From: a phage
Sequence record: PZ583740.1
Strand: one strand, 5' to 3'
DNA: 27,851 nt
Made by a program: the position numbers and the translations under genes. Positions within the stretch are counted from its first letter, which is position 1; every line of letters begins with the position of its first letter. Of this stretch, positions 1-20,008 are shown one piece after another. The notes below the pieces were generated by a model. That model did not search any database and had not been told where the DNA came from. It worked only from the letters and a program-made list of their open reading frames with translations.

Positions 1-419
1 TAACCGACCTCACCGCCTCGGTTGAGCGCAGCAGCATCATTACCTACATAAAGTGGATATTGTCCTGTGGGGTCAGAGAAGCCTTCGTTGGGATTTGCTT
101 TTTGTCTTGAGGCTGAACCATACGTACCAATAACAAGCCCGTTGAGTTTCCACTTGTCTAAAAAGTGACCATATACCTGAGTCCCTGGCACCATACCGGT
201 CATTGCAGTTTGAATACCAGAAACTGATGCAGATGATGTTGGCATCAGTACAGACATCCATGGCAGGTCTTCAGTTCTGATACCTTTTACAGGCCCTTGT
301 GATTTCTCATATGGATGCATACCCCATACACGGACACGGACTCGGCCTTGTTGAAGTGGGTCCATTCGGTCTTCGACAACACCGACGAACCAACTTACAT
401 TATCTGACATATTAATCAT
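1..419 (-). CDS. 5: Baseplate hub / tail lysozyme gp5, N-terminal part only (gene continues past window start)
   Basis: Reverse-strand translation from ATG at 417-419 gives MINMSDNVSWFVGVVEDRMDP...GFSDPTGQYP, matching the gp5 N-terminal domain as I recall it; start overlaps gene 53 stop (ATGA). Not in ORF track because no stop lies inside the window. Confidence 0.8.
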   Translation of the reverse strand, partial: MINMSDNVSWFVGVVEDRMDPLQQGRVRVRVWGMHPYEKSQGPVKGIRTEDLPWMSVLMPTSSASVSGIQTAMTGMVPGTQVYGHFLDKWKLNGLVIGTYGSASRQKANPNEGFSDPTGQYPLYVGNDAAALNRGGEVG

Positions 420-1018
420 AATGACTTCTCCATCTCACGGATTAATGCCGAAATAAATGATTCGATATCATTAGGGTCGATTATCTTTATTTCTCGTTTA
501 TATTCATTTTTACGAATAGCATCTTCATAGATATCTACTGCAGCTAATGGACCTTCATATTGTGGGTACAATTTATTCTTATCACCTTTATCATACCAGG
601 TGTACGGATTATCAGGATAAGAAACAAGATTCCAGAATTTTTCACCATCTTCATTTACATGATAAAGAACCTGATTACCACCTATATTCGAATAGCGTTG
701 AATTGATGCCTGATACGATGATTCTTGTGAACATATCCAACCATAATACGGGTCATAGATATCATTAAGCATAAGGAGAACCCAATAGAGTTGAGTATTA
801 CCATAGAGCTGATATGCAAGTTCTTCAGGTCTTGGAGCTCCAGCGATGTAATATGTTTTCGGTGTATAATTAACCGCAACCTTATCAAAATAGGCACGAT
901 AGTTTCTGAAGATGTCAGTCATCGGGATGCTTAAGACGTCTTCTTTCGTTAATGATGCCGAGTTTTTTCTGATTGTTTTAGCATCATAATCAATTGGGTT
1001 AAAAAATGAAAAAAGCAT
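416..1018 (-). CDS. 53: Baseplate wedge protein gp53
   Basis: Track ORF 416..1048; product MLFSFFNPIDYDAKT...YPQYEGPLAAVD resembles T4 gp53. ATG at 1016-1018 is preceded by GGAGG; the track's longer ORF begins at a TTG. Confidence 0.8.
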   Translation of the reverse strand: MLFSFFNPIDYDAKTIRKNSASLTKEDVLSIPMTDIFRNYRAYFDKVAVNYTPKTYYIAGAPRPEELAYQLYGNTQLYWVLLMLNDIYDPYYGWICSQESSYQASIQRYSNIGGNQVLYHVNEDGEKFWNLVSYPDNPYTWYDKGDKNKLYPQYEGPLAAVDIYEDAIRKNEYKREIKIIDPNDIESFISALIREMEKSL

Positions 1019-1030
1019 AAAGCCTCCATT

Positions 1031-1038
1031 TATAAATA
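1031..1038 (+). promoter_or_regulatory. T4-type late promoter (TATAAATA) for gene 4
   Basis: Exact TATAAATA 28 nt upstream of the gene 4 ATG, followed by GGAGG RBS. Confidence 0.55.
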
Positions 1039-1066
1039 AGTATATCAATATTTATTAGGAGGCTAT

Positions 1067-1519
1067 ATGGCATACTCCGGGAAGTGGCAGCCAAAAAACG
1101 TTGCCAAGTACAAAGGAGACTGGAAGAAAATCACATACAGGTCAAATTGGGAAAAATTTGTATTTAATTGGTTAGATAATCATCCAGATGTGATACAATG
1201 GGGCTCTGAGACCGTAATTATTCCATATTTCAGTAATGCGGATGGTAAAAAACGCAGATATTACATGGATATGTGGGTGAAATTCTCAAATGGACAACAG
1301 TTTTTCTTTGAGGTCAAACCCAAAAAGGAAACAAGGCCGCCAGCAAAACCAGTCAATACGACCGCTGCAAGTAAGAAGAGGTTTATGAACGAAATGTACA
1401 CTTGGGCCGTTAACAAGGATAAGTGGAAAGCAGCGCAGGCCGTAGCCGATAAAATGGGCATCCAGTTTAGATTGATTACTGAAGATGCGCTTAGAAAAAT
1501 GGGATATAAGGGTTTATAA
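1067..1519 (+). CDS. 4: Head completion protein gp4
   Basis: 150 aa, MAYSGKWQPKNVAKYKGDWKKITYRSNWEKF..., length and sequence match T4 gp4; divergent from gene 53 as in T4. Confidence 0.85.
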   Translation: MAYSGKWQPKNVAKYKGDWKKITYRSNWEKFVFNWLDNHPDVIQWGSETVIIPYFSNADGKKRRYYMDMWVKFSNGQQFFFEVKPKKETRPPAKPVNTTAASKKRFMNEMYTWAVNKDKWKAAQAVADKMGIQFRLITEDALRKMGYKGL

Positions 1520-2247
1520 TGTACGATTGTTCAGATTTTAACATCACAAATGGCGAGATAGTGGGACAAGGCGATTTTAATAAATCAAAAACTTTGATAT
1601 TTGTAAAGTGCTTTATATGTGAAGAAACATGCAAATACAAAGCAACTGTTTTAAAGCATAAGTTAAAAACAAAAAGTTGGTGTTCTAATTGTAATTTAAA
1701 ACGTTCTTATGGTGAAAGCAAATTAATATCTGAATTAGATGCAATCACAAGAATAAATTCCGTGAATCCATTGTATAGTTTTGATAAATGGGATACCACA
1801 TATTCAACTTTTACAAAATCAAAAGCCTATATAAAGTGTTCTACATGTTCAACCAGTTGGATTACAAATCTAAACAACTTTACAACAAAAAACAAAGGAT
1901 GTCCAAACTGTTGTCACAAAGGATTTAACGCAAAGAAACCTGCTATTGTTTATGTTAATAAAATAGAATATCCGGGCGGAACTGCTTTAAAGTATGGTAT
2001 AACTTCCAATCATGATTTTAGATTGTGGCAGCAAAATCATTTTTCCAAATGCATTAGTTCCAAATTATATTATCGAGAATTTGAACTGGGTGCACAAGCC
2101 AAAATGTTAGAATCCGCAATATCTGTATTATATATAAAAGACAGAGGTTATTTGAATAAAGATATTATGGTCGATGGCTATACAGAAACCTTACCATACT
2201 ATTTAAAAAATGATTTGATTAATTTTATAGAAGGATGGAAAGGATGA
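1519..2247 (+). CDS. Cys-rich putative endonuclease: N-terminal zinc-ribbon pairs plus GIY-YIG-like C-terminal half
   Basis: 242 aa. Two CxxC...CxxC units ([13 protein letters not shown]; CSTCS..CPNCC). C-terminal [33 protein letters not shown] resembles the I-TevI GIY...YVGSAKDFEKRWKRHF core. Start overlaps gp4 stop (TAATG), stop overlaps gp2 start (ATGA). Confidence 0.45.
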
Positions 2248-3071
2248 GTATTTTTACATTTATCAATGAATCTGCAGATAAACCAGGTCCGAAACCCAGT
2301 AAATCAGAACAACAATGGGTTGAAATAGGGGTTGAATTTTATACAGCAAAAGAAAAGGGAATGACCTCGAAGAAGTTTGCTGAAGAGAAAGGAATCAACT
2401 ATTCGACCTTTACCAAAAGCATGTCAAGATATCATTCGAGAATTCAGACTGCTTATAAAGTATCCAAGCTCAAAAAGAAACCTGCCGGTAAACTTACGAA
2501 GGCTGAACGTCAGCTGATAATGGTGAATAGCTTTAGAAAGAGCATAAGAGATAAGATTGCTAACGAAGGCGCTGCAAGCAACACCAAATCTGCCAGATGG
2601 TTCGCTGAGACAATTAAGAAATCAGTTCGGGGCCACGTAACGGCTAAACCTCAACCGGGTAAGATTTATGCTTATATCTATGATGCAAAGCATAAGGATA
2701 CTCTTCCGTACTGGGACAAATATCCGTTAATCATTTATCTTGGGCTAGGTAAGCACAATTTGATGTATGGTTTGAACTTGCACTATATTCCACCGAAGGC
2801 ACGTCAAGAGTTCCTTGAGGAACTTCTTAAGCAATATGCCAATACTCCTACGATTACGAACAAGACTCATCTGAAGATTGATTGGTCAAAAGTGAAGGGA
2901 TTTAAAGGGGCTGACCAGATGATTAAAGCATATATACCTGGCAATATAAAAGGTACTATCACTGAAATCAAGCCCAGCGACTGGGCAAATGTGGTATTAC
3001 TCCCCCTTCAGCAGTTTTTTTCAAAAGGCAAAAGATTTTCTTCACAGAAAGTATGGAGAAATTCACTTTGA
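2244..3071 (+). CDS. 2: DNA end-protector protein gp2
   Basis: Position between genes 4 and 3 as in T4; about 275 aa from ATG at 2244 (AAGGA upstream). Sequence recall for gp2 is weak, so the call rests largely on synteny and size. Confidence 0.65.
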
Positions 3072-3727
3072 ATTATCAGTTTATATATTCATCGTTAATT
3101 GAAAGGGCCCGTAACAGGGTCCTGATTTCATATAAAGAATCTCATCACATCATTCCGAAATGTATGGGTGGTTCAAATGCTCCGGATAACTTAGTCGATT
3201 TGACTCCCGAGGAACATTATGTAGCCCATCAACTATTGGTTAAAATATATCCTACAAATCCAGGTTTAAGTTTTGCTGCCACATCTATGAGTCAGTCAAG
3301 CAAGTATTTGAAACGCAATAATAAATTATTTGGCTGGTTAAGACGCAGACACGCTGACAATATTTCTAAAAGCCAAACCGGTAAAGTTTACTTTAATAAT
3401 GGTGTCAAATCGATAAAACTATTTCCATGGGAAGATGTTCCGGATGGGTTTGTCAAAGGAAGACATTACAGCCCAACCAAGGGTACAAAACATTCTCGCA
3501 ATAATGGACATTTTAAAAATAAAGAGATTCAGGACGAATTGAGAAAGCGCCGGTGGGAAAAAGATAGGCAAGAAATGTGTAAAAACTTCGGAGTTGATAC
3601 CATCGAGCAAGCTCGAGAGTTGGTCCTAGCATATAAAAAGGAATTGCATCCTCGATACTGGGTAAAGCCAATGTTGGAACGTTATCCGTTTATGACTAAG
3701 CTAAGACTTAACACATTAATAAAATAA
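3053..3727 (+). CDS. HNH homing endonuclease (free-standing)
   Basis: 224 aa with HNH motif [29 protein letters not shown]; inserted between genes 2 and 3, overlapping the gp2 3' end by 19 nt. Confidence 0.8.
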
Positions 3728-3812
3728 TCTATTATCGGTCAGTGTTATTGGTAAGGACAAAAGGTCTAGAACCATTATAACACTGATTGTTTTAAAGCAA
3801 ACAAGGTGCACT

Positions 3813-4412
3813 ATGTCAGGTTTATATAATCAAACTAACACGACTAACTTTATATTAGAGGTGAGCGATTCAAACCTCACACAGACCTTTAAACTCAACG
3901 TTCAAGACGTTACCCTCCCAGGAGTTCACATTCCAGTGACGGATGTCCCTGGGGGAACACAAGGTATAAATCGCTCCAGTCTTCCTGGTAGTACAATAGA
4001 ATTCGACCCGCTGATTGTTAACTTTCTGTGTGACAAAGACCTAAGAGCGTGGCTTGACATCTATAAATGGATGCTCTCGCTTAACAACTACATCACACAC
4101 GAATCAAAAGCATGGAATCCGAAGGGTCGTCCCGAAGCGGTCACGCTTCACATCTTAGATAACAACAAGGACAAAATTGTCATGTCAATCCATTACTATG
4201 GAGCATGGCCGTCCGACCTGTCAGAGATTCAGTATTCATATAAAGAAGATTCTGACCCGGCTATCATTGCAACAGCAACTTTTAACTTTAAGTCTTTTGC
4301 TGTAGAAATTGATGGTATAATAATAGAAGGTAGACCACAGATTGATAGTAATGCAGCAATGCAACAGGAAATCAGGTCTAAGTCAATGCATCCATCTATG
4401 AGAAACGTATGA
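3813..4412 (+). CDS. 3: Tail completion / sheath stabilizer protein gp3 (assigned mainly by position)
   Basis: 199 aa ORF between genes 2 and 1, stop overlaps gene 1 start (ATGA); RBS AAGGTG upstream. Confidence 0.55.
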   Translation: MSGLYNQTNTTNFILEVSDSNLTQTFKLNVQDVTLPGVHIPVTDVPGGTQGINRSSLPGSTIEFDPLIVNFLCDKDLRAWLDIYKWMLSLNNYITHESKAWNPKGRPEAVTLHILDNNKDKIVMSIHYYGAWPSDLSEIQYSYKEDSDPAIIATATFNFKSFAVEIDGIIIEGRPQIDSNAAMQQEIRSKSMHPSMRNV

Positions 4413-5085
4413 AATTAATTGCGATTGTGGGTAAAAAACGCAGTGGTAAAGATACGACTGCTGATTATGTTATTAGTCAAAACGGAACAAAGTGGCAGCT
4501 TGCTGGTCCGATTAAAGAAGCGCTTTATAAAGCGTGGATTCGTCAAGACCTGCCACACAATTTGACCCTGGAAAATTTTGATGGACAAGGTTACGACCGT
4601 GAAAAAACCTTAATAATGAACAACACCGAAGCTTATATTCTTCTGGTTGATGCTCTTGAATGGTTGAAACAACAATACAATCTTGACCTTCCGAATCCAG
4701 ATATGGTTCGTAAAATCATTGAATTTCACACACTAAATAATGTTGAGCCCTGGACAGTTAGACGTTTCATGCAGACCCTTGGAACTGATATTGTTTGTAC
4801 AGAGTTCGACAGCATGTTTTGGATTAAAACTTTTGCATGCGACTATCTTGACAACCTCTATTCTGGATATAAATATTACGTTGTCCCAGATGTTCGTCAA
4901 AAGAATGAACTTGATTCGCTTCGGGCGATGGGTGCTACAATAATCTTTGTAGAACGCGATGAAGCAAATCATTCTACTGATACACACATTACGGAAGCTG
5001 GACTTCCACCACTAGCTAGTGACATTGTTATTAAAAACGATGGCACACTCGAAGAACTTTTTGATAAAATTAATAAGGTAATATA

Positions 5086-5086
<1 letters not shown>
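4409..5086 (+). CDS. 1: Deoxynucleoside monophosphate kinase gp1
   Basis: 225 aa with P-loop GKKRSGKDTTAD; MKLIAIVGKKRSGKDTTADYVIS...LAGPIKEAL matches T4 gp1. Confidence 0.85.
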
Positions 5087-5776
<690 letters not shown>

Positions 5777-5777
<1 letters not shown>

Positions 5778-5806
5778 TGTACAAATGAGTGTAGGTGCAG
5801 TATTAT
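5777..5806 (+). promoter_or_regulatory. Sigma70/T4-early-like promoter (GTGTAC, 18 nt spacer, TATTAT) overlapping a 7-bp-stem palindrome
   Basis: GTGTAC at 5777-5782, TATTAT at 5801-5806; inverted repeat GTGTAGG (5789-5795) / CCTACAC (5810-5816); GGAG RBS then ATG at 5838. Confidence 0.35.
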
Positions 5807-5837
5807 GTTCCTACACCAATGAACAAACGGAGTTAAT

Positions 5838-6170
5838 ATGAACATCAAAACTTACAACGAGTTTTTAGCCGAATCCGCCATCAATGAGACCAAATCAATT
5901 GATGATAGTGAAGGCTCTCTGAAATTTGGTTTAACCAAAAACGCAGATGGTGTTTTCTTTCAGATTGGTAATGAACGTTTTCAAACGTCCAAATATTCCA
6001 AAGCTGCAGTTGAAGCTGTCCTGAAATCTGGTGGCAAGTGGAAAGGCAAAGAAGGTACTAAAGAAATTGGTATCGCTGTTGACGGTGGTATGGCTTATTT
6101 TAAAATTGGCGATGAACAATTTATTATGTCTGCTCGCGGACGTAAAGAACTGGCAAAACTTTATAAATAA
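5838..6170 (+). CDS. Internal protein (IP)-like, capsid-targeted small protein A
   Basis: 110 aa; N-terminus MNIKTYNEFLAE-S resembles the T4 capsid-targeting sequence MKTYQEFIAE with an L-x-E prohead-protease site; GGAG RBS. Confidence 0.7.
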   Translation: MNIKTYNEFLAESAINETKSIDDSEGSLKFGLTKNADGVFFQIGNERFQTSKYSKAAVEAVLKSGGKWKGKEGTKEIGIAVDGGMAYFKIGDEQFIMSARGRKELAKLYK

Positions 6171-6178
6171 GGTTTCTT

Positions 6179-6451
6179 ATGAAAACTTTCAATGAATTTT
6201 TCAACGAGTCACAATTGAATGAAGAAGTAAAAATTAGTAAAGCAGTCAAATCTATGATTGACAATATCAATCACCTGTATAGCATTGACTTGACTGACCA
6301 TATAACAATTGGTAACAAACGCAACTTTTTCGCGTTTGACATTTCAGAACTTGACCAGAACCAAATTAATAACATTGAGCGTTTTGCCAATGACAAGGGT
6401 CTCCGCCATGAGACAGCTGGTTATAAAAAATATGCAATTTATCTTAAATAA
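6179..6451 (+). CDS. Internal protein (IP)-like, capsid-targeted small protein B
   Basis: 90 aa; N-terminus MKTFNEFFNE-S; tightly linked to ORF A via conserved junction AAATAAGGTTTCTTATGAAAAC. Confidence 0.65.
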   Translation: MKTFNEFFNESQLNEEVKISKAVKSMIDNINHLYSIDLTDHITIGNKRNFFAFDISELDQNQINNIERFANDKGLRHETAGYKKYAIYLK

Positions 6452-6459
6452 GGCTTCAA

Positions 6460-6702
6460 ATGAAAACTTATCAAACATTTATAACAGAATCTTCCCATAG
6501 TATGGAAGTTAAACTTGGTCAAGCCCTTGCTGAAGCAGAGCGCCTGTTTGCACGTATCAAAGAACTTGCCGATTCTGTAGATGCATCATCTTTTAAAGGC
6601 GACCAGGGTAAAGTTAAAGCTCTCCTTGCTCTTTGTTCAGACGCGGGTGAAATTGCTAAGAACGGCACCAAGATGAAAAAACGCCTAGAAGATTTAAAAT
6701 AA
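6460..6702 (+). CDS. Internal protein (IP)-like, capsid-targeted small protein C
   Basis: 80 aa; N-terminus MKTYQTFITE-S; junction AAATAAGGCTTCAAATGAAAAC. Confidence 0.65.
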   Translation: MKTYQTFITESSHSMEVKLGQALAEAERLFARIKELADSVDASSFKGDQGKVKALLALCSDAGEIAKNGTKMKKRLEDLK

Positions 6703-6732
6703 GTGTACATGATGGGATAACTGTAGTATGAT
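6703..6732 (+). promoter_or_regulatory. Sigma70/T4-early-like promoter (GTGTAC, 18 nt spacer, TATGAT) overlapping palindrome TGGGATAA/TTATCCCA
   Basis: GTGTAC 6703-6708, TATGAT 6727-6732; 8-bp inverted repeat 6713-6720 / 6732-6739. Confidence 0.35.
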
Positions 6733-6757
6733 TATCCCATCAACTACTGGAGACCAC

Positions 6758-7012
6758 ATGAAAACTTATCAAGAATTTATTACTGAATCTGCAAATGCAA
6801 AAGTTGAGTTTGCTTATGTTGGTTCGCCGCGTGGCAGTTTTTCCAATGAGGAATTCCGTCGTTCACTGGACAATTTCATGCAGTTAAGTGCTGAAGTATC
6901 GCATGATGGTCGTTATGACATCGTTACTATTAGCGGTTCTGAAGACCTTATCAAAAAGTGGTACAAGCAGAAAGATGTTGAGATGCGTTACTATCGTATC
7001 CCTAAAAAATAA
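6758..7012 (+). CDS. Internal protein (IP)-like, capsid-targeted small protein D
   Basis: Track ORF 6728..7012 starts at an upstream codon; ATG at 6758 has a GGAG RBS and gives MKTYQEFITE-S (84 aa). Confidence 0.65.
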   Translation: MKTYQEFITESANAKVEFAYVGSPRGSFSNEEFRRSLDNFMQLSAEVSHDGRYDIVTISGSEDLIKKWYKQKDVEMRYYRIPKK

Positions 7013-7041
7013 GTGTACTTTTAAATGGGATAACGTATAAT
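7013..7041 (+). promoter_or_regulatory. Sigma70/T4-early-like promoter (GTGTAC, 17 nt spacer, TATAAT) overlapping palindrome TGGGATAA/TTATCCCA
   Basis: GTGTAC 7013-7018, TATAAT 7036-7041; inverted repeat 7026-7033 / 7041-7048; about 80 percent identical to the unit at 6700-6760. Confidence 0.4.
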
Positions 7042-7070
7042 TATCCCATCAACTACTGAGGGCCAAAAAA

Positions 7071-7292
7071 ATGAAAACGTATCAAGAATTTATTAACGAA
7101 GCTAAAATGCATGACGAATTGCCGATTCAATCTAAAACTTTTGATGGTACACTGAAGGATTTTAAAAAGTTGCCAAATGATAAATTGGCAAAACTTACAG
7201 GTTCTGTATCTGAAACAGGTGGTAAGGTTACTTTCTCTGCCCGTGGTATTGTCAACCTTAAAAAACTTTTGAAAGCCGTTGGTGCTGAATAA
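7071..7292 (+). CDS. Internal protein (IP)-like, capsid-targeted small protein E
   Basis: 73 aa; N-terminus MKTYQEFINE-A; GAGGG RBS. Confidence 0.65.
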   Translation: MKTYQEFINEAKMHDELPIQSKTFDGTLKDFKKLPNDKLAKLTGSVSETGGKVTFSARGIVNLKKLLKAVGAE

Positions 7293-7350
7293 AACAGTTA
7301 CTGGTCTAGTATATCATAACCTAGACCTATCAAAAAGTGAGGAGAATAAA

Positions 7351-7536
7351 ATGAAACGTTGTGAATTAATTAGAAATGTTACTGCCTTTGTTGCTGTTAC
7401 CACTTTTGGTTTTAGCATGTTTGCTGGCTTTATGTTGAATATGCTTTCAACTTCTGAGAATATAATCTCTTTAGTAGTTGCATTTTTAATTGGTTCAATC
7501 TCTTTCGTTATGGATAAAATCTCTAAAGGTGAGTAA
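7351..7536 (+). CDS. Small predicted membrane protein (two hydrophobic helices), function unknown
   Basis: ATG at 7351 preceded by strong GAGGAG RBS; 61 aa with hydrophobic stretches [23 protein letters not shown] and [17 protein letters not shown]. Track ORF 7279..7536 starts at an upstream TTG. Confidence 0.5.
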
Positions 7537-7550
7537 AATGTATAAAGTGT

Positions 7551-8519
7551 ATGCGGATTATCAGAAAGATTCGCCTGCAAGGCTTCACCAGCGGTGAATG
7601 GGTAGCTCGCGAGAAGATTCATGGTACCAACTTTTCATTAATCATTGAACAAGACAATGTGACATGTGCGAAACGCACTGGACCTATCCTGCCTGCAGAA
7701 GATTTCTATGGTTATGAAATTGTATTAAAGAATTATGCTGATTCTATTAAATCTGTGCAGAAACTTTTGCAGGATATTAATTACCAGGCATACCAGATTT
7801 ATGGTGAGTTTGCCGGGGCAGGTATCCAGAAGAATGTGGATTACGGTGATAAAGATTTTTATGTATTTGATATCCGCGTTACTAAAGAAGATGGTTTTGA
7901 ATCCGTCCTGACTGACACCTTGATGGAAGCATTCTGTATTATCCATAAGTTTAAGGTTGCACCGCGCCTGGCTACAGGTAGTTTTGAAGAATTAATTAAG
8001 CTCCCTAATGACCTGGATTCTGTTGTCCCTGATTACAATTTTACAGTGGATAACGCGGGTTTGACTACAGCAAATACCACTGATTTTGTTGCAAAGGTGG
8101 AAGGTAAAGTATTCACTGCCGAAGGATTTGTATTAAAACCTGATGTTCCTGCATGGTTACCTAACGGCGAGCGTGTAGCGATTAAATGTAAGAACTCTAA
8201 ATTCAGTGAAAAGAAAAAGTCTGATAAGCCTATTAAGGCTGCAGTGGTTCTGAGCCAAAATGATATGGATTTACTGTGGAATTTCACTGATTATGTGACT
8301 GTTAACCGTATCAACAATGTTATCAGTAAAATTGGGGAAGTAACACCGAAGGATTTTGGAAAGGTAATGGGGTTAACAGTCCAAGATATTCTGGAAGAAG
8401 CGGGGCGCGAAGGTCTTGAATTGTCCCTGACGGAAAATCCTGTTGAAGTTAAAAAGCAACTTATTGTAAATGTAAGAGAAACATTAAGACATGTTTGGAT
8501 TGCATTAGTTAGTGAATAA
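7551..8519 (+). CDS. rnlB: RNA ligase 2 (Rnl2 / gp24.1)
   Basis: 322 aa with nucleotidyltransferase motif [20 protein letters not shown] and strong overall similarity to T4 Rnl2; true 5' end uncertain (ATG with good RBS at 7538 is in another frame). Confidence 0.85.
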
Positions 8520-8547
8520 AAATAAAGGGCCTTGCGGCCCTTTTTTA
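8520..8547. terminator. Bidirectional rho-independent terminator between rnlB and gene 24
   Basis: Hairpin GGGCC-TTGC-GGCCC (8527-8540) flanked by an A-run upstream and T6 downstream; lies between convergent stops. Confidence 0.7.
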
Positions 8548-9825
8548 ATTTATTTCAGTCAGAACTTTAGGAAGTTTCACACCAAGCAGTACAGACATAT
8601 CTGAACGTCCTGCCATCAAATCCATATTTGTTGCATCAATAATACGAGCTTGTTTATCATCAGCAGTCACTGTATAAGGGTTAGCTGCTAACGCATAACG
8701 AACCATTAATGCAATAGACGGCTGCAAACTTTCTGGGTCAACGACAACTTTGAACGAACCAACATGTTCAGGGTCTTCCAGGTCAAGACCTTCGGTATAA
8801 GGTGCATAAAACAGTGAACCCACCATCTCTTTCCCACCGAAATCTTCTTTAACACCAACAGTCACATAATCAAATGGAGTGTTCGTATCGCAATAAAGCG
8901 GTAGACCATTATCCAAGAAACCATACGCATTATCGGAGAGATATTTCTCATCTTGTGGACGATGCTTCAACCAACCAGAACCAGCCAAAACTGCAGCTAC
9001 ACGCGTAGAAGCAACAACGTATGTTGCGGTGTAAGAAGTTGCCCGCTGAATATGGGAGACCATCTCACACATGATTTCGTACAACTTGCGTGAAGCTTCC
9101 GGAGAGTTGGTATAAGACAGGTCAATCAGGCCATCATCACAGAGTCCAGCAACTTTATAACGCTTGGAAACTGTTACCAGGGATTGCAGGATATCTTTGT
9201 TAATTTCATCAGCCATTTCGGTAGCTAACAGGTCTTCCAGGAAGTTTGGAGCGTCAAAACCATTTGCTTCCAGGTCCTGGGCCAGTTCCACTGTAACAGT
9301 GCTTTTCAGCTTACGAGATTTAACCGGAGCATTCCATTTGTTAACCAAAAATTTAGCTTCGGCAATTTCGACTTCCTGTGGTCCTTCAAAACGTTCGGTG
9401 ATTGCAGCTTCGGACATAATACGGATGGTCAATTTAACCATCGCTTCTTGAAGCTGGTCATACTCATCGCCCGTTGCTCCAGCAAATGGAGTTGCTACCA
9501 GCGCTTTATAAACTACATTTTCAAACTGGAACAAATCGTCTTTAGCATAAACTGCGCCAGCAACAAAAACCGGAATGGTCGCACGGTCTTTTGCTGATAC
9601 TGCACCAGAATAGGTTGCACCAGTCTGGAAAGATAATTCATCTTTCTGAGTCAGGTATTTAAGACCGTATAATGCCGCCAGTGGCTGGGATGTGCGCTGT
9701 TGTGCTACTAAATCGGTGTAAATCAGTTTAGTTGTAGCTCTGGTTAAAGCTACTAGATTCGGTCGACCAATCGAAGAACTTGTGGTCGTGGTCGACTCTT
9801 TTAAGAGTTCGTTAATTTTAGCCAT
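8545..9825 (-). CDS. 24: Head vertex protein gp24
   Basis: 426 aa, MAKINELLKESTTTTSSSIGRPNLVALTRATTKLIYTDLVAQQRTSQPLAALYG...; gp23-paralog fold; matches T4 gp24. Confidence 0.85.
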   Translation of the reverse strand: MAKINELLKESTTTTSSSIGRPNLVALTRATTKLIYTDLVAQQRTSQPLAALYGLKYLTQKDELSFQTGATYSGAVSAKDRATIPVFVAGAVYAKDDLFQFENVVYKALVATPFAGATGDEYDQLQEAMVKLTIRIMSEAAITERFEGPQEVEIAEAKFLVNKWNAPVKSRKLKSTVTVELAQDLEANGFDAPNFLEDLLATEMADEINKDILQSLVTVSKRYKVAGLCDDGLIDLSYTNSPEASRKLYEIMCEMVSHIQRATSYTATYVVASTRVAAVLAGSGWLKHRPQDEKYLSDNAYGFLDNGLPLYCDTNTPFDYVTVGVKEDFGGKEMVGSLFYAPYTEGLDLEDPEHVGSFKVVVDPESLQPSIALMVRYALAANPYTVTADDKQARIIDATNMDLMAGRSDMSVLLGVKLPKVLTEIN

Positions 9826-9850
9826 TGCTATTTCCTTTTGTGATATACTT

Positions 9851-9858
9851 TATTTATA
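9851..9858 (-). promoter_or_regulatory. T4-type late promoter (TATAAATA on minus strand) for gene 24
   Basis: Reverse complement of 9851-9858 is TATAAATA, 25 nt upstream of the gp24 ATG. Confidence 0.55.
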
Positions 9859-9864
9859 AAAGTT

Positions 9865-9894
9865 GTTTACAACCAGATTAAGATAAGACATAAT
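9865..9894 (+). promoter_or_regulatory. T4-early-like promoter (GTTTAC, 18 nt spacer, CATAAT) for the plus-strand 93-aa ORF
   Basis: GTTTAC at 9865-9870 and CATAAT at 9889-9894; AT-rich upstream. Confidence 0.4.
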
Positions 9895-9935
9895 GATTCC
9901 ATACTGAGTTAACAAACAAAACCTGGAGTTTAAAA

Positions 9936-10217
9936 ATGAACAAAGCAACTTTCCTTCTGAACACCTTTAAAAATCTGGAAATTGAAGTTATTGCCTTGGT
10001 CAACAAATACCCAAATGGTGTTAATGGTAATGCTCTGAACAAACTAGTTAAAAAATATGAAAACTTAGCATATGACACTGATTTCTGGTGGAATGGTAAT
10101 TATTCTACTCACACTAAAGATAAAAATGGTAACTGGTTGAAACTTCAAGAAAACAATGTTAACTTCAGAGACCTTATCAAGCGCCGGGTAGAAGTTCATT
10201 TAAATGGTATGGTATGA
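9936..10217 (+). CDS. Hypothetical protein, opposite-strand gene between head genes 24 and 23
   Basis: 93 aa ORF with GGAG RBS 8 nt upstream of ATG, own promoter-like element and a downstream hairpin terminator; no recognisable motif. Confidence 0.5.
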   Translation: MNKATFLLNTFKNLEIEVIALVNKYPNGVNGNALNKLVKKYENLAYDTDFWWNGNYSTHTKDKNGNWLKLQENNVNFRDLIKRRVEVHLNGMV

Positions 10218-10224
10218 AAACAAG

Positions 10225-10252
10225 AAAGGGACCTCAAGGGTCCCTTTTTATT
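10225..10252. terminator. Bidirectional rho-independent terminator after gene 23 and after the 93-aa ORF
   Basis: Hairpin GGGACC-TCAAG-GGTCCC (10228-10244) followed by T-run on plus strand and T-rich tract on minus strand. Confidence 0.7.
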
Positions 10253-10267
10253 TAACTTAATCTAGGA

Positions 10268-11827
10268 TTAAATTCCTTTAACATATACGCGGCGGAAGTA
10301 ACCGTTCAAGCCAAGGCTGTTAACGATGTCCGGCATGCCGTTCTGAATGCGCTTGGTCGGAGCCTGAGCAGCAGGGTCAGCAAACGGGTTGATACCGATA
10401 CCGTAACGGGTTTTGAAGCCCATAACCGGCTGGAAGTTTTTCGGGTCAGAACCACGCAGCGGGGTCAGTGCAACATATGGTGCGTAGTAGATACCAGCAT
10501 CCATTTCGTTAGCGCCTTTGTAACCGATGGTGAAGTAATCTGCACGAGCATACTGGTCGATATAGACACGGTATTTGCCACCCAGAACACCAGCGAACAC
10601 AGCTTTAGTGGTGTCAACGTTGAAACCTTTACCCAGACCCTGAGCAGCATAACTAACAGAAGTATCAACAGCAGCCAGCACGTTAACTACGTTACGGGAA
10701 GCGATGATGAAGTTACCTGCACCACGACCGGTCTGACGAGCGATTTCAGCGGCTTCTTTATCAATCTGGAACAGTAAAGCTTTGAAGCTTTCACCAGCCC
10801 AACGAGCACCACGGATATCAATCGGGTCCTGGAAGTCAAACACACCAGCTTTAGCGCCAACGGTGTTGGTCATACCAGATTTACCAACCTGAGCGGAGTA
10901 GTTAATCCAATCGATAACTTCACGGTTGATTTCCAGCATAATTTCGGTAGCCAGAATACCACTCAATTCGGCATCAGCATCCATACCATGAACAGCGCGC
11001 AGGTCCTGTGCCAGTTCGATGGAGTAGCTTGCTTTCAGCTGACGGGATTTAGCTTCGATAACTTGTTTATCGATACGGAAGCCCATTTCGTTCCACGGGT
11101 TATCAGTAGAACCGTTAAAGCCTTCCTGCAATTCGGCGATAGAAGTAGCCATACCTTCAGCGATTTCTGCCAACTTACCAGCTTCGAGCAGTTTGGTAAC
11201 TTCAGCGTCAAGTTTAGCAGCATCAGTAGCACCAGCATCAACGGTTACAGCTTCAACAGCCTGGTAGTGTGCAGAACCGGTTGCTTCGAAGAAGTGAGAA
11301 TAAATTTTACCAACTTCCAGAACTTTGCTTGCAGCCAGTGCTTCAAAAGTCTGAGCAGCGCCCTGACCAGAGAACATAGCGTTCGGAGCATACATCGGAT
11401 GGAAAGCTTCTTTAGCACCAGCAGCGACAGGGTCTTTACCGTATACTGCACGCAGTGCAAATACCTGGCCAGTCGGGTTGTTCAGAGGCTGTACGCCACA
11501 AATATCAAACGCAATCAGATGCGGGATAGCACGACGAACCATACCCATAACTGCCGGCCCAATCTGAGTTACTGCACCAGAGGTCTGGCCAGCAGCGATA
11601 TTGGTAGCATCATAACCATGGTCACCACCGATTTCAGCTTCGGTCAGGAAAGAACCAAATGCTTCGGAGATTTTTTCGTCACGGTATTCAGGAGCGGTCA
11701 GAATATCTTGTTCCTGGTTTTCAAAGATTTTAGCGATGATAGCTTGTTTAGAAGCACCAACGATTTCAGGAAGAGCTTCGTTTTCCAGCAGAGCGGACCA
11801 TTTTTGAACTAATGCATTCTTTTTCAT
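10268..11827 (-). CDS. 23: Major capsid protein gp23
   Basis: 519 aa; near-identical stretches to T4 gp23 (AIIAKIFENQE, GAVTQIGPAVMGMVRRAIP, DPKNFQPVMGFKTRYGIGINPF, YFRRVYVKGI). Confidence 0.95.
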   Translation of the reverse strand: MKKNALVQKWSALLENEALPEIVGASKQAIIAKIFENQEQDILTAPEYRDEKISEAFGSFLTEAEIGGDHGYDATNIAAGQTSGAVTQIGPAVMGMVRRAIPHLIAFDICGVQPLNNPTGQVFALRAVYGKDPVAAGAKEAFHPMYAPNAMFSGQGAAQTFEALAASKVLEVGKIYSHFFEATGSAHYQAVEAVTVDAGATDAAKLDAEVTKLLEAGKLAEIAEGMATSIAELQEGFNGSTDNPWNEMGFRIDKQVIEAKSRQLKASYSIELAQDLRAVHGMDADAELSGILATEIMLEINREVIDWINYSAQVGKSGMTNTVGAKAGVFDFQDPIDIRGARWAGESFKALLFQIDKEAAEIARQTGRGAGNFIIASRNVVNVLAAVDTSVSYAAQGLGKGFNVDTTKAVFAGVLGGKYRVYIDQYARADYFTIGYKGANEMDAGIYYAPYVALTPLRGSDPKNFQPVMGFKTRYGIGINPFADPAAQAPTKRIQNGMPDIVNSLGLNGYFRRVYVKGI

Positions 11828-11848
11828 GTGTTGTATAACCTTATTAAA

Positions 11849-12667
11849 TTAAGAAATTCGTGATGCTGCGAGAGCAGACAAGTCCGCGAAGGACAGGGTA
11901 GGCTTGGCGCCTTTTTCTTCAACTGCTTCTGAAATGTAATTCAGTGCCGCAGCATCGTCTACATTTTTATTTATAGCGGCTTCGGTGATTGGTTTGTCGG
12001 TGGGTTCTACCTGACCTTTAACCATTTCAACGATAGCGCCAATTTTGGTACCGAATGCATCAGAGTATTCCATGCCTTCTACCAGAGAACCAACTTTTTC
12101 TTTCTGAGATTCAGTCAGGTCTTTAGTTGCTTCAGTCAACGCAACTTCACGTTGGACATAATTGATATAAGCATCACGCTTAGAAACTTCTTCGAACAGG
12201 TTAGCGGTTTCTTCTTTCTGTTCAGCCAGTTCTTCCTGCATTTCTGCAACAACATCGACAGATTCTTCCGGAACAACAACGTTGTGCTCAACGAACAGTT
12301 CTTTCATGCCGGTGAACATGGATTCGAACAGGTCAGCTTTAATGCCACGGTCGACAGCCAGTTTATTTTCAGCAAGCCATTCTTTAGCAACGTGGTCCAG
12401 GAATTTAGCTGCAGATTCTTTCAGTTTTTTCTCTGCTTTTTCGTCGGATTCTTCTTTATTCTTTTCGACTTCTTCTTCAGCTTTTTCAGCGATGGCGTGA
12501 ATGTGAGATTCTGCCAGTTTGATGGCGTGTTGCTTGACGGTAGCTTCGAATACAGTGCCGAAGGTAGCTTTCGCTTCCGGGGACAAATTAACTGATTCGA
12601 AAATACTATCGAGAGCAACGGAAGCATCGATATTCTGAGCTTCAGAAATGAGTTGTTCTTTAAGCAT
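11849..12667 (-). CDS. 22: Prohead core scaffold protein gp22
   Basis: 272 aa, highly acidic coiled-coil-like protein between genes 21 and 23, as in T4. Confidence 0.8.
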   Translation of the reverse strand: MLKEQLISEAQNIDASVALDSIFESVNLSPEAKATFGTVFEATVKQHAIKLAESHIHAIAEKAEEEVEKNKEESDEKAEKKLKESAAKFLDHVAKEWLAENKLAVDRGIKADLFESMFTGMKELFVEHNVVVPEESVDVVAEMQEELAEQKEETANLFEEVSKRDAYINYVQREVALTEATKDLTESQKEKVGSLVEGMEYSDAFGTKIGAIVEMVKGQVEPTDKPITEAAINKNVDDAAALNYISEAVEEKGAKPTLSFADLSALAASRIS

Positions 12668-12696
12668 TTTGTAGTCCTGTTGTTAAGATATACATT

Positions 12697-12704
12697 TATT
12701 TATA
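12697..12704 (-). promoter_or_regulatory. T4-type late promoter (TATAAATA on minus strand) for gene 22
   Basis: Reverse complement of 12697-12704 is TATAAATA, 29 nt upstream of the gp22 ATG; overlaps gp21 stop codon. Confidence 0.5.
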
Positions 12705-13338
12705 ACGTCTTTAAAGCCTCTGCGAGAGCCATAAAGGCGTCATCGGCACTGGTATCGGCAACAGCCGTTTGTGATTCTGTAATCTGCTTTGGTTTGACCC
12801 AAGCGTCCGGAGCACTTGGCCCCCATACTGCGTCTACTCCAACCGTCAATTTAAAACCTTCATTAACGATGTTATAACCTTTTGCTGATTTAGTCAGGGA
12901 ACCAAGTCCACGACTAGATACGCCAGGAATCCAACCTGCTCTTATATTCGCAGCAAGTTTATCACCTGGACCATGGTCGCCTTCTATAATACGTGCGCGG
13001 CCATATACATCATTCCCTTTCCACCACATTTCCTCGATAATAATTGCTGCCTGCATAGGGTCAACGTTTGCACGAGGTGGATGGTTTAATTCTCCAAGAG
13101 ACTGCTTGGTTTCAACCTGTTCGACGATATAGTCCGCAACAGCTTTTTCCAAAATATGTTTAGGATAAAGTCGTTTATTACGGTTAACAACTTCAGCTTG
13201 TAGGAAAATACCTTCAATATAAAGTCCTGGCTTTAAACCGCTGCTGGAACCATCATGAGATTCCAACATCGGTACACCATCTTTAATTTCGCCCGGTTGA
13301 CCCCAGTGTTCGATTAGTAACTCTGGTTTCTGTTCCAT
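12700..13338 (-). CDS. 21: Prohead protease gp21
   Basis: 212 aa, [21 protein letters not shown]...; same length as T4 gp21 and matching sequence. Confidence 0.85.
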   Translation of the reverse strand: MEQKPELLIEHWGQPGEIKDGVPMLESHDGSSSGLKPGLYIEGIFLQAEVVNRNKRLYPKHILEKAVADYIVEQVETKQSLGELNHPPRANVDPMQAAIIIEEMWWKGNDVYGRARIIEGDHGPGDKLAANIRAGWIPGVSSRGLGSLTKSAKGYNIVNEGFKLTVGVDAVWGPSAPDAWVKPKQITESQTAVADTSADDAFMALAEALKTL

Positions 13339-13766
13339 TAATCAAGTCCGAATGCTTTACGCTTAGCTCGAGCTTTTTTGCGCTTGCGCTCTGCTCTGAT
13401 TTGCGTAGATGGGTTTGCTCTTTTCGTTTTAGTAGCCAGACGGGCAATTTGACGACGTTTAGCTTTAGAAAGACCGGTTGTTTGGAAAGCATTACGCTTA
13501 CGAGTAGCTAGGTCTTTTGTGCGGGTTAACTCACCGCGAGACGATACATGTTTAACGATAAATTCGTTAAGCTGAACACCTTCATTCAGAGCGCCGATAA
13601 CCGTTGCTTTTTCGTATTCACCGGCTGCAAACATGTTTTCTACAATAATATTTATATCGTCTTTTTCTAAGGCTTCGGATAATGAATCAAATTGTCCCTG
13701 AGCTTCTTCGGAAACACTTTCAATGTTTTCAAGAGTTAATTCGTAATCATCAGGGATAATAAACAT
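13338..13766 (-). CDS. 68: Prohead core protein gp68
   Basis: 142 aa with basic C-terminal tail; position between 67 and 21 as in T4. Confidence 0.7.
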
Positions 13767-13993
13767 TATTCATCGTCCTCATCGTCAGATTCTTTTTTGT
13801 CTTTCTTTTCTGCTTTGCCGTCGTCCTTGCCTTCATCTTCTTTAGGCTCTTCGCCTTCAATCATGATGGAACGTGCAATTTCAATCTTACGTTCTTCAAT
13901 CAAACTACCGCATACTGGGCCAATGTTTTCAGCAAAATATTTGCGAACGGCTACGAGGTCGTTTGATTTAATGGCTTCAAATAAATCATCCAT
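13766..13993 (-). CDS. 67: Prohead core protein gp67
   Basis: 75 aa with acidic C-terminus; position immediately downstream of gene 20 as in T4. Confidence 0.7.
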
Positions 13994-15567
13994 TAGAAAT
14001 CCTCTTCTTCTTCTTCAGGGTTTTGGAAACGAGCCTCTTTGGACTCCAATTCAATTTGCTTAGCTTCTTGATTAATTTCTTCATCAGACATCTGGAGGAA
14101 ATCCTTCATAGCCGTTTGATGTGAAATATATTTACCGATAAACGGTTCAGCCATCGTTAGCATATTGATTCTGCGTTCCATGATTTCTGCATCTTTCATT
14201 TCGGTGAAATAGCTATCACGGTTGAACGTAACTTTAATATTATTTAGTTCCTTGTCCCATTCCTCTTCTGAAATAATTTTTTTCAGGATAAGGTTTGTTT
14301 TAAGCGGGTCGAGGAAAACTTCTTCAAATTTATTCTGTAGCTGTCGAATCCATTTAGAGAAATTCAATTCATCGCGAGTAATTGTCGCACCTGCATCAAA
14401 CATAACGCCGCTGTTCTGGTCGTTAGGGATACGAGATAATGGAATTCGGAGCGCCTGATATAGGTTGTTCTTAAACCAGCGAACATCGTCCATATCCGAC
14501 ATGCCTTGTGCACCCGGGAGTGTATCAACTTCAGTGACTGCTTTACCATCACGACGTTGCAACCAATAGTCTTCTGTCATTGACATGTTGTGCTGTTGGT
14601 TTTTGATTTTACCCGTAGTTGCATCATATACGACACGGTTTTTCATCGTGTTCATAATATGTTGCATGTGTGCTGCTGCTTTACGAGACGGCATATTCCC
14701 GGTATCGATATAAAAGACTCGGCGGTCTGGGGCACGAGTTATACGATAAATGACTAAAGCATCTTCTAATAGTTTTAATTGGTTTGCAGGTTTAATTGCT
14801 CGTTGCAAGTATCCGATGATATTCTTGCCACAACAATCGAGTAATCCAGAATGCGCATATACAATCGCCGCACGAGGAATTTTTATTTTAGTACCTGCTT
14901 CATATATACGACCATCGGCACAATAACTTTCATGGCCAGTATCGTATACAAAATATTCTCTGTAACCGTCGACAATTTTTGTACCGTTTTCCATGCGTGT
15001 AACGATTTCACGGATGAACTGGATTTGTCTTGGGTCAAGGCGACGAAGTTCTTGAACTCCATCTTTAAGTTTTGATGGGTTGATAATTTTGTGGAAGAAA
15101 ATTCGAGAATCCACATACCAACGTTTAAAGTGGTCAGAACCTTTGCGCTCGAAATTAAGGAGGTTATTGACTTCCGAGAATTCTTCGAGGATTCGGTCTT
15201 TAATTTTCTGACTAAATTCGGTAGCATCAAGGTTAAGAGCTACAACATCTTTACCGTCTTCAAAAACGATAGCATCAGACACAATTTCTTGCACTGCGTT
15301 ATCAACTTCATAATTATTTAGTAAGTTGCGGTAGGTGTCAATTAATTCCCTGGTATTTTTTACTTCAGGTTCATTGCTCCCGAACATCTGTTGCATCAAT
15401 GCATTATACGGGACGTTTTGTTCTTGTGACTCAATTTCACGAGCCCCATCATCAAACTTCGGCCCGGTCATTGACTCTAAATTATTTTTTTCTTGTTGCT
15501 TATATTCTTGTTCATCTTCTTTAGCCCAAGGCTTAAGAAAATTTAGTATTGTGTTAAAACCTGCCAT
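13993..15567 (-). CDS. 20: Portal vertex protein gp20
   Basis: 524 aa; long stretches matching T4 gp20 ([58 protein letters not shown]). Confidence 0.9.
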
Positions 15568-15595
15568 TAGAGTCTCCGAAGTTTGTCTATTACTT

Positions 15596-15603
15596 TATTT
15601 ATA
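15596..15603 (-). promoter_or_regulatory. T4-type late promoter (TATAAATA on minus strand) for gene 20
   Basis: Reverse complement of 15596-15603 is TATAAATA, 28 nt upstream of the gp20 ATG; overlaps the stop of the upstream endonuclease gene. Confidence 0.5.
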
Positions 15604-16186
15604 TTGGAGTTCGGGTACAATTTTTATGATATCGAACAATCGCAGAGCGAGTGGACTCCGTACCACATACGGGACAAATTGCACGAGGTAAATTTAATGA
15701 TTTTCCTTTATTTGGATGTTCTTTACCAAACATAGGATTATTTTCACCGCTCATTGCTTTAGAATGGTCTGGTCGTTTTCTTCCTGATAATGCTTTGGAT
15801 TGTCTTGGACGTTTAACACCAGTATTGCTTTTATTTCTTTTATCGATAGATTCCTGTGTCCAAACCTTACCTTTCATCGACATACCAAAAAATCCATTTG
15901 GTTGAGCTAATGACATATTTATATAGTTTGGTGATTTAACCACATTGTATAATTTTTGTACTCGTAATTCTTCTTCAATAGCTTCTTCGTGCGTATTAAA
16001 TGTTTTTAAGATACGAGTTTTAAACAACTGAGGATTATCACGTAATTCATTTTTCCAAATGGTTTTATATTTTTTAGAACCAACGGAACCATGATAATTT
16101 TCAGTTATTCGTTGAATAGTTGTCGAGCCGATGTAACGACGGGGAAGGAGATTCCCCGTATATACTGTAAGATAAGTGCAATACAT
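15599..16186 (-). CDS. GIY-YIG homing endonuclease (Seg-like)
   Basis: 195 aa; N-terminal YLTVYTGNLLPRRYIGST (GIY...YIG), NUMOD3-like repeats (SGRKRPDHSKAMSGENNPMFGK), C-terminal CPVCG...HKNC zinc finger; GGAG RBS. Confidence 0.8.
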   Translation of the reverse strand: MYCTYLTVYTGNLLPRRYIGSTTIQRITENYHGSVGSKKYKTIWKNELRDNPQLFKTRILKTFNTHEEAIEEELRVQKLYNVVKSPNYINMSLAQPNGFFGMSMKGKVWTQESIDKRNKSNTGVKRPRQSKALSGRKRPDHSKAMSGENNPMFGKEHPNKGKSLNLPRAICPVCGTESTRSAIVRYHKNCTRTPI

Positions 16187-16598: not shown

Positions 16599-16635
16599 TT
16601 ATCGCTAATGTGTTTTAGCGTGTTAGTCGTTGTCA

Positions 16636-19981: not shown

Positions 19982-20008
19982 AGGTAAGCCTCGTTATTGA
20001 TATAGCTA

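Follow-up and report, generated by a model that had tools for sequence, protein, structure and literature searches.

Phage genes in which zinc fingers precede a T5orf172 domain were described by Netter 2021 (PMC8096241) and Barth 2023 (PMC10055350, also PMC10448857). Those that combine CapR, DUF723 or DUF4379 fingers with a following T5orf172 domain are regarded as putative homing endonuclease genes (HEGs) located at the boundaries of genetic exchange in ICP1 and other phages (PMC8096241; PMC10055350), and according to Barth et al. T4 itself possesses no T5orf172 genes (PMC10055350). The T5orf172 domain of the ICP1 origin-directed nuclease Odn (Gp88) is a proven nuclease, the activity of which is abolished by the substitution E180A (PMC8263062); in the cited literature we found no experimental demonstration of homing by a gene of the T5orf172 class. 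Here we report on an ORF encoding 242 amino acids between genes 4 and 2 of a Gaprivervirus (Tevenvirinae), a T4-type coliphage, represented by a window of 27,851 nucleotides (the whole stretch of DNA that was analysed, PZ583740.1). In our view this ORF is probably a free-standing homing endonuclease gene of the T5orf172/CapR class, a GIY-YIG nuclease subfamily in which the DNA-binding module comes first.

Like ICP1 gp174, gp165, gp121, gp53 and gp130, the ORF couples putative N-terminal Cys4 fingers to a predicted C-terminal domain of the T5orf172/GIY-YIG clan, and like the ICP1-type HEGs it is sporadic among close relatives, lies beside essential late genes and occupies the edge of an exchanged block. 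It differs from them in scoring below the Pfam cut-offs when taken alone, in residing in a T4-type coliphage and in having exactly two fingers, whose spacings (CxxC-20-CxxC and CxxC-17-CxxC) deviate from the CxxC-24/26-CxC reported for CapR. T5.141 is a direct homologue (36% identical over residues 86–227, E 8e-17); together with PHROG 681 and with the RB49 ORF239c-like genes, JSE gp134 and Lw1 gp206 it shares the architecture and the location between conserved late genes, but these genes occupy other insertion sites and vary in finger number, and no biochemical characterisation of them is reported in their records or in the cited literature. Odn resembles the ORF in its C-terminal T5orf172 domain, which has the catalytic Arg and Glu and is devoid of the helix-1 His/Tyr (PMC8263062).

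I-TevI and the T4 Seg proteins are the canonical GIY-YIG homing endonucleases. In I-TevI and the T4 Seg proteins the nuclease is N-terminal, the reverse of the order in the ORF, and NUMOD/HTH modules are found in place of tandem Cys4 fingers; neither BLASTP nor hhalign of the family profile against single sequences detected any similarity between the ORF and I-TevI or Seg. A preliminary description of the locus had singled out this reversed domain order, and relative to I-TevI and Seg it is indeed reversed; it is nevertheless no anomaly, because binding-module-first is the rule in the T5orf172 subfamily (PMC8096241, PMC10055350). SLX1 and At-HIGLE, structure-specific nucleases of the URI/GIY-YIG type, have only the fold in common with the ORF; as repair enzymes of eukaryotes they work with an SLX4 partner and bear a RING/PHD finger at the C-terminus.

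Position and expression of the ORF

The mechanical ORF list and our reading of the sequence define an ATG-initiated frame on the plus strand (Table 1). Its upstream neighbour (1067..1519) encodes the head completion protein gp4 (PHROG 218, 3.2e-61) and its downstream neighbour the DNA end protector gp2 (PHROG 429, 1.8e-78), and the divergent gp53 lies at 416..1048. Both junctions are formed by overlapping codons: the ATG of the ORF (1519–1521) has one base in common with the gene 4 stop TAA (1517–1519), giving TAATG at 1517–1521, and the stop TGA (2245–2247) overlaps the gene 2 start ATG (2244–2246) as ATGA at 2244–2247. This gene 2 start is the same as that of ORF-less relatives, in which the gp2 N-terminus reads MSIFTF. 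In T4 (NC_000866) gene 2 (76061–76885) and gene 4 (76885–77337) abut with no gene between them. The preliminary description had reported a 242-residue ORF wedged between the two genes by overlapping start and stop codons and lacking a counterpart in T4, and both statements are confirmed. GenBank records list the ORF as a ‘hypothetical protein’, RefSeq simply as an ‘endonuclease’.

Table 1 Coordinates of the features at the gene 4/gene 2 locus of the window
Feature	Position	Strand	Basis
T4-type late promoter box TATAAATA, upstream of gene 4	1031..1038	+	Pattern search and context
Divergent gene 4 allele, left part of exchanged block 1084–2231	1084..1518	+	VR20 comparison, allele survey
AAGGG, Shine-Dalgarno-like sequence within the end of gene 4, 6 nt 5' of the ORF ATG (putative function)	1508..1512	+	Sequence reading
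Putative free-standing homing endonuclease gene, 242 aa	1519..2247	+	ORF list, sequence, PHROG 681, relatives, AF2
Predicted zinc finger 1, residues about 12–58 (C31, C34, C55, C58)	1552..1692	+	Cys positions, AF2, family conservation
Predicted zinc finger 2, CapR/DUF4379 type, residues about 86–134 (C107, C110, C128, C131)	1774..1920	+	Sub-cut-off DUF4379 match, homologue P0002, conservation
Predicted GIY-YIG-clan (T5orf172/MUG113-like) nuclease domain, residues about 140–240	1936..2238	+	Family models, fold, motif residues
AGGATGGAAAGGATGA, copy of the 3' terminus of the original gene 4 plus the ribosome-binding region of gene 2	2232..2247	+	Identical to VR20/VR7 gene 4/2 junction

The ORF is real and not a chance reading frame, since it has a full-length homologue of 69% identity, 1097 cluster representatives and a predicted structure with a mean pLDDT of 90.5. 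Its place in a late structural operon and its translational coupling to genes 4 and 2 are what one would expect of a conserved morphogenetic accessory gene, but such a gene would not be absent from T4 and most Gapriverviruses, a pattern by which this explanation is already refuted; nor does a spurious ORF accord with a large family containing nuclease-clan domains, an atypical GC content and a high-confidence fold. We therefore regard either version of this explanation as scarcely credible.

A pattern search of the window for T4-type late promoter boxes returned 10 matches against 2.4 expected. The box that precedes gene 4 is the only one upstream of the ORF, and none is found at 1039–4867; a late box directly upstream of the ORF is absent, so that an independent promoter was not found. 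The gene 4 box probably serves all three genes (gene 4, the ORF and gene 2), and the ORF is likely to be expressed late along with its two neighbours. A tRNA scan of the window was empty.

Putative tandem fingers and a predicted GIY-YIG-clan domain

Twelve cysteines are distributed over the ORF product (residues 4, 31, 34, 38, 55, 58, 107, 110, 128, 131, 132 and 178), and its four CxxC motifs make up two Cys4 units, C31/C34 with C55/C58 and C107/C110 with C128/C131. The two pairs of CxxC motifs that had been described in the N-terminal half are confirmed, and the zinc-ribbon-like character attributed to them holds with a qualification, the ORF giving a weak DUF4379 match and its relatives matching CapR and DUF4379. 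Finger 1 is predicted by AF2 to consist of three strands and a helix (E12-17, E26-31, E37-41, H42-50), followed by a helical linker at residues 56–82; C55 and C58 hardly vary across the family, and the N-terminal fingers of relatives match DUF4379/CapR. For finger 2, residues 100–133 of the ORF align with DUF4379 (PF14311, ‘probable treble clef zinc finger’) at 20.8 bits (E 4.6e-4), under the cut-off of 24.5, and at the aligned finger of the 69% identical homologue P0002 both CapR (PF21817, 30.6 bits) and DUF4379 (27.2 bits) pass. A search of the PDB sequences with the family profile matched the DUF4379 protein 6sga_Fd (E 0.0013). Compared with one another by BLASTP the two fingers are not significantly similar (E 1.9). 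On the strength of the Cys4 pattern and of the relatives, both fingers are putative zinc- and DNA-binding modules.

The C-terminal half had been described as GIY-YIG-like. The family models and the predicted fold uphold this description, but the ORF alone does not: neither the complete ORF nor residues 138–242 gave a Pfam nuclease match even at E ≤ 10, be it to GIY-YIG (PF01541, cut-off 22.6 bits), T5orf172 (PF10544, cut-off 20) or MUG113 (PF13455, cut-off 22.3), and an NCBIfam scan of the ORF matched no nuclease family. The nuclease assignment therefore rests on the relatives and on the predicted fold. A profile search without any nuclease match had been named in the preliminary description as grounds for abandoning its reading, and, taken literally on this one sequence, the Pfam result would have failed it.

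For the family as a whole, membership of the domain in the GIY-YIG clan is clear. Residues 144–210 of P0002 score 19.5 bits with T5orf172 and 15 with MUG113, whereas the majority consensus of the C-terminal domains reaches 27.5 bits with T5orf172 (cut-off 20), 24.4 with MUG113 (22.3) and 20.9 with GIY-YIG (22.6). Two relatives, P0059 (25.3 bits) and P0094 (24.4 bits), exceed the GIY-YIG cut-off of 22.6 in the homologous region, where they also pass that of T5orf172. In a family alignment of 32 sequences with an average identity of about 27%, DUF4379 is matched by 27 of the 32 members, CapR by 22, MUG113 by 16, T5orf172 by nine and GIY-YIG by five (E ≤ 0.01 for MUG113 and T5orf172), and the nuclease-clan matches fall where residues about 140–230 are homologous.

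The candidate catalytic residues are Y145, K158-Y159-G160, R168, E198 and the motif G220-Y-T-E223-T224. Invariant in all 32 sequences are C128 and C131 of finger 2 together with Y145, K158, G160, R168, G191, E198, G220, E223 and T224, a set that covers the strand-1 Tyr, the strand-2 x-Y-G, the helix-1 Arg and the helix-2 Glu of GIY-YIG enzymes; Y159 is present in the ORF, and its position is occupied by Y, F, I or V in relatives. An equivalent of I-TevI Asn90 (N90) near the C-terminus was not identified in the ORF, which has instead the invariant G-x-T-E-T motif around E223 that we take to be typical of T5orf172 domains. Where I-TevI has the helix-1 His (H31; His/Tyr in this position), the ORF has a Gln, Q172, four residues after R168, and several relatives have His. 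The 33-residue peptide that had previously been aligned with the catalytic core of I-TevI is present at residues 143–175. The residue-level alignment itself is not supported statistically: hhalign of the C-terminal domain profile against I-TevI residues 1–99 yields a probability of about 1%, as it does against the Seg-like protein of P479, and the pairing of ‘NHF’ with ‘RHF’ is probably off by two, the helix-1 His corresponding to Q172 and not to H174.

The AF2 model of the whole protein, built with the family alignment and having the above mean pLDDT of 90.5, comprises two beta3-alpha finger modules joined by helices and then an alpha/beta domain, which when modelled alone reaches a pLDDT of 96.7 and a pTM of 0.88. 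In the model the core of this domain is folded as in GIY-YIG enzymes, with a beta-hairpin that carries the two Tyr motifs followed by helix, strand and helix, and matches SLX1, UPF0213, I-TevI, UvrC and Eco29kI. BFVD structural neighbours at TM 0.7–0.9 are named ‘CapR homology domain-containing’, ‘T5 Orf172 DNA-binding domain-containing’, ‘GIY-YIG domain-containing’ and ‘homing endonuclease’. The C-terminal domain profile run against the PDB found the UPF0213 GIY-YIG protein 1ywl at a weak E of 0.099, with Tyr, Gly-Thr, Arg and Glu in register, and Foldseek with the three-domain full-length model against the PDB returned only noise. The C-terminal half is accordingly predicted, from sequence relatives and modelled structure, to be a GIY-YIG-clan domain closest to T5orf172/MUG113; the ORF is a divergent member, with the fold and the core motif residues of the clan and with scores that, when it is taken alone, miss the Pfam cut-offs for GIY-YIG, T5orf172, MUG113, CapR and DUF4379, each of which is passed within the family.

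The ORF might be a domesticated or decayed endonuclease whose fingers bind DNA and which no longer cuts, for instance a late-gene regulator like PLE CapR or like I-TevI in its role as an autorepressor, an explanation that we consider improbable. Precisely this kind of derivative of the finger type is found in CapR (PMC8096241), but CapR is wholly without a nuclease domain, whereas the ORF has kept a full one with every family-invariant residue and a very confident fold. The ORF does score under its relatives against the nuclease models, and it does have Q172 in place of the helix-1 His that some of them possess; Odn, however, likewise lacks the helix-1 His/Tyr and yet is active (PMC8263062). 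Finally, the ORF is missing from most close relatives, which argues against a conserved regulatory role.

Distribution of homologues and the exchanged gene 4 block

PHROGs places the ORF in family 681, ‘endonuclease’ (2.5e-29). A word-indexed homologue search gave only two proteins, and an exhaustive search of representatives was needed; with HMMER it produced 1097 cluster representatives at E ≤ 1e-3. One homologue is 69% identical over the full length (E 2e-106). By tblastn against 50,697 phage records the ORF is found at 100% amino-acid identity only in Escherichia phages RZ and DK-13 and Shigella phage fPSFA (four records), and this 4/2 junction holds a single 69% identical homologue in Yersinia phage MHG19. 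In about a hundred other records there are homologues at 24–36% identity at other junctions between conserved late genes: T5.141 lies between the tail assembly chaperone and tape measure genes, JSE gp134 between genes 2 and 3, and Lw1 gp206 between genes 14 and 15. Homologues also occur in RaK2-like jumbo phages and Aeromonas phages, and the T4-type phages that possess one include JSE, Lw1, RB16, Phi1 and MHG19. The ORF is absent from T4, VR20, VR7 and at least 16 listed Gapriverviruses. Gene 4 runs straight into gene 2 through an ATGA overlap, without any insertion, in VR20, VR7, VR26, SP18 and many others of the genus. Comparison of the gene 4 to gene 2 interval in relatives, as the preliminary description had proposed, hence reveals a sporadic gene and not a conserved syntenic one.

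The composition and the conservation of the ORF set it apart from its surroundings. Its GC content is 29.8% against about 40% for the flanks and the window. The window region is 97.8–99.4% identical to fPSFA, RZ and DK-13; the ORF is identical to those of fPSFA and RZ over all 729 nt and differs from that of DK-13 by 2 nt, whereas the flanks are 96.5–99.8% identical to the ORF-bearing relatives (up to 3.5% divergence). Relative to fPSFA the flanks differ by 2.9%, from which about 21 differences would be expected in the ORF, and none were found (Poisson P about 7e-10).

Comparison with the ORF-less VR20 delimits an exchanged block (1084–2231) that has sharp edges and carries the ORF at its end. 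No mismatches are found at 981–1083 (103 bp), 129 mismatches at 1084–1519 (about 436 bp, almost all of gene 4), and again none at 2232–2305 (74 bp), gene 2 being only about 4.5% divergent; the block is about 71% identical to VR20. The last 16 nt of the ORF, AGGATGGAAAGGATGA, encode its final codons GWKG and the stop. Because in ORF-less phages these 16 nt constitute the 3' end of gene 4 and the start region of gene 2, the ORF ends with the GWKG and stop of gp4 itself, and the insert therefore keeps the translation and initiation signals of gene 2. On either side of the MHG19 homologue the junction sequence stands as a perfect direct repeat of 18 bp, AGGATGGAAAGGATAATG.

The gene 4 allele that accompanies the ORF is only about 72% identical in nucleotides and 77% in protein to that of ORF-less relatives. 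At an identity of at least 89% it is found in only seven records, each with an endonuclease gene directly downstream, which is either this ORF (RZ, DK-13, fPSFA) or a Seg-like gene (P479, P8, PSD2001); all other Gapriverviruses are 72–74% identical to the allele of the window. The Seg-like gene is unrelated to the ORF, encodes a 215-residue GIY-YIG/NUMOD3 protein and occupies the same 4/2 site, and the gene 4 linked to it is a synonymously diverged copy of the window's allele.

A mobile insertion, as had been proposed from the wedged-in position, is strongly supported by these sequence comparisons, namely by the pattern of presence and absence, the low GC content, the identity above that of the flanks and the exchanged flanking block. 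The block could also have arisen through ordinary recombination with a divergent donor and not through the repair of an endonuclease cut.

The same footprints bear on whether the ORF is a weapon, that is, a site-specific nuclease serving, as ICP1 Odn does, to attack host DNA, satellites or rival phages and not to spread itself. In Odn a T5orf172 nuclease has been turned on a satellite (PMC8263062), and the exclusion of a competitor's markers and homing are mechanistically one act. For this new target, however, Odn acquired a RepA_N domain, whereas the ORF keeps the standard finger array of putative HEGs. The PADLOC defence models gave no meaningful match to the ORF. The insertion footprint, the linked allele and the occurrence of a different HEG at this site all suggest that its target lies in the homologous phage locus. 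For these reasons we think a weapon rather unlikely.

A proposed homing cycle and its implications

The course that we infer for the putative homing endonuclease gene, from expression through cleavage activity and target position to homing, would begin at the promoter at 1031, from which the ORF would be transcribed late along with genes 4 and 2; its translation would be coupled to the stop of gene 4. A long DNA site would be read by the pair of N-terminal Cys4 fingers and their helical linker, and the GIY-YIG-like domain (Y145, Y159, R168, E198, E223) would cut or nick near it. When two phages infect the same cell, the enzyme would attack the relative that lacks the ORF in its gene 4/gene 2 region, and recombinational repair from the ORF-bearing genome would copy the ORF and the adjacent gene 4 allele (co-conversion) into the cut genome; this linked allele would itself be resistant to cutting. 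Since the right flank is identical from 2232 onwards in genomes with and without the ORF, the site by which self and target are distinguished would have to include gene 4 sequence to the left.

The putative homing endonuclease gene belongs to a type that is already on record; it is a good example of that type and otherwise an ordinary selfish element. The analysis provides a reasoned function for a gene annotated as a ‘hypothetical protein’ or simply an ‘endonuclease’. It further shows that T4-type coliphages, besides the classical Seg and Mob genes, harbour genes of the T5orf172/CapR type, which had been known mainly from ICP1, T5-like and Aeromonas phages; this locus and the homologues in JSE, Lw1, RB16, Phi1 and MHG19 together show that the class is established in T4-type phages. 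The 4/2 locus represents a clean natural case of a nuclease gene at the edge of an exchanged allele of an essential gene, gene 4, and the most interesting point is the tight linkage of this divergent allele to two alternative endonuclease genes at one site.

A more tentative proposal, to which we give somewhat less than even credence, is that the ORF and the divergent gene 4 allele move jointly as a two-gene cassette, whose endonuclease would cut within gene 4 of ORF-less Gapriverviruses, with the linked allele immune and the site contested by the unrelated Seg-type endonuclease. Close phages with and without the ORF have been isolated on E. coli hosts, and homing by this class of enzyme is therefore directly testable. 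If the two-gene cassette is real, RZ or DK-13 crossed with VR20 or VR7 would constitute a tractable E. coli system in which homing, target choice and allele replacement could for the first time be demonstrated directly for an enzyme of the T5orf172 class.

Segment order of the window

The order of segments in the window departs from that of the complete genome of the related phage RZ, and the two are not collinear (see the table for the corresponding stretches). The breakpoints, at 7564/7565 and 16595/16596, fall within genes: rnlB is short by about 18 codons, the tail tube gene is reduced to 110 aa, and gp12 is also cut. Genes 12 to 18 are absent from the window, and gene 5 holds both of its ends, 1.1 kb apart. 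The window has the appearance of a contig that was mis-assembled or concatenated, or of a defective genome. With 23 kb, fPSFA, the nearest record, is itself partial. The rearranged order leaves the locus comprising gene 4, the zinc-finger/T5orf172-like endonuclease ORF and gene 2 unaffected, and this locus is collinear in RZ, DK-13 and fPSFA.

Coordinates of putative endonuclease genes, repeat-bearing stretches and segments matched to RZ
Feature	Genome	Coordinates	Strand	Site or RZ counterpart	Evidence
Putative mobile endonuclease gene, HNH-type, MobB-like, 224 aa	window	3053-3727	+		PHROG 655, 2.4e-56; weak Pfam HNH
ORF, 195 aa	window	15599-16186	-		homing endonuclease PHROGs 10820/314, 3e-32 and 5e-26
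ORF, 225 aa	window	26116-26793	-		homing endonuclease PHROG 314, 1.9e-42
Seg-like endonuclease gene, 215 aa	Escherichia phage P479	1720-2367			NUMOD3 24.2 bits; GIY-YIG 21.1 bits, just below cut-off
Zinc-finger/T5orf172-like family member, 380 aa	Krischvirus JSE	1338-2480		between genes 2 and 3	
Repeat-bearing stretches	Yersinia phage MHG19	2476-2504 and 3204-3232, approximately			
Segment	window	1-7564		86795->79891	
Segment	window	7565-15585		118722->110668	
Segment	window	16233-16595		110628->110266	
Segment	window	16596-26117		98473->88952	
Segment	window	26792-27851		88942->87883	

Boundaries of the insertion between genes 4 and 2

In Yersinia phage MHG19 a perfect direct repeat of 18 bp, AGGATGGAAAGGATAATG, flanks the 69% homologue of the ORF. 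The repeat combines the end of gene 4 with the start codon of the gene that follows; it marks the MHG19 insertion as a junction duplication. The left copy in the window has diverged together with the gene 4 allele. On the right-hand side, gene 2 begins at an upstream ATG at 2235 (MERMSIF...), within the endonuclease ORF, in the mechanical ORF list and in RZ as annotated by RefSeq. It begins at the ATG at 2244 (MSIFTF...) in the relatives devoid of the ORF and in the fPSFA and DK-13 entries of GenBank. The insertion has probably produced the start at 2235 as an artefact. The product of gene 4 itself, the head completion protein gp4 (1067-1519, + strand), matches the Pfam domain Tn7_TnsA-like_N ('TnsA-like endonuclease N-terminal'; 1.9e-22), and in one record the protein goes under the name 'head completion nuclease'.

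Putative endonuclease genes around genes 4, 2 and 3

The 4/2 junction of other Gapriverviruses (P479, P8 and PSD2001) is occupied by a 215-aa Seg-like gene. BLASTP found no similarity between the ORF and the P479 protein; they are unrelated genes at one site. The gene 4 allele upstream of the Seg-like gene is 98% identical to that of the window in protein but only 90% in DNA, against about 99% in the flanks. The two endonuclease-linked alleles of gene 4 thus differ by an excess of synonymous changes, for which separate donors or escape from cleavage are possible causes.

Between genes 2 and 3 the window carries a second putative mobile endonuclease gene, the HNH-type gene. VR7, VR25, P479 and fPSFA also have this gene; RZ, DK-13 and VR20 lack it. 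Directly beside the HNH-type gene, the 3' end of gene 2 (about 2990-3071) contains a cluster of mismatches to VR20 and VR7, the pattern expected of a co-conversion tract. Two further ORFs, of 195 and 225 aa, bring the putative mobile endonuclease genes in the window to four; RZ has neither, and one adjoins the portal and tail-tube genes while the other lies between gp6 and gp5.4.

Whereas an HNH gene holds the 2/3 junction in the window, in phage JSE the same position is held by a member of the ORF's own zinc-finger/T5orf172-like family. The stretch of genes 4, 2 and 3 therefore seems to be a landing zone in which different endonuclease families settle recurrently.
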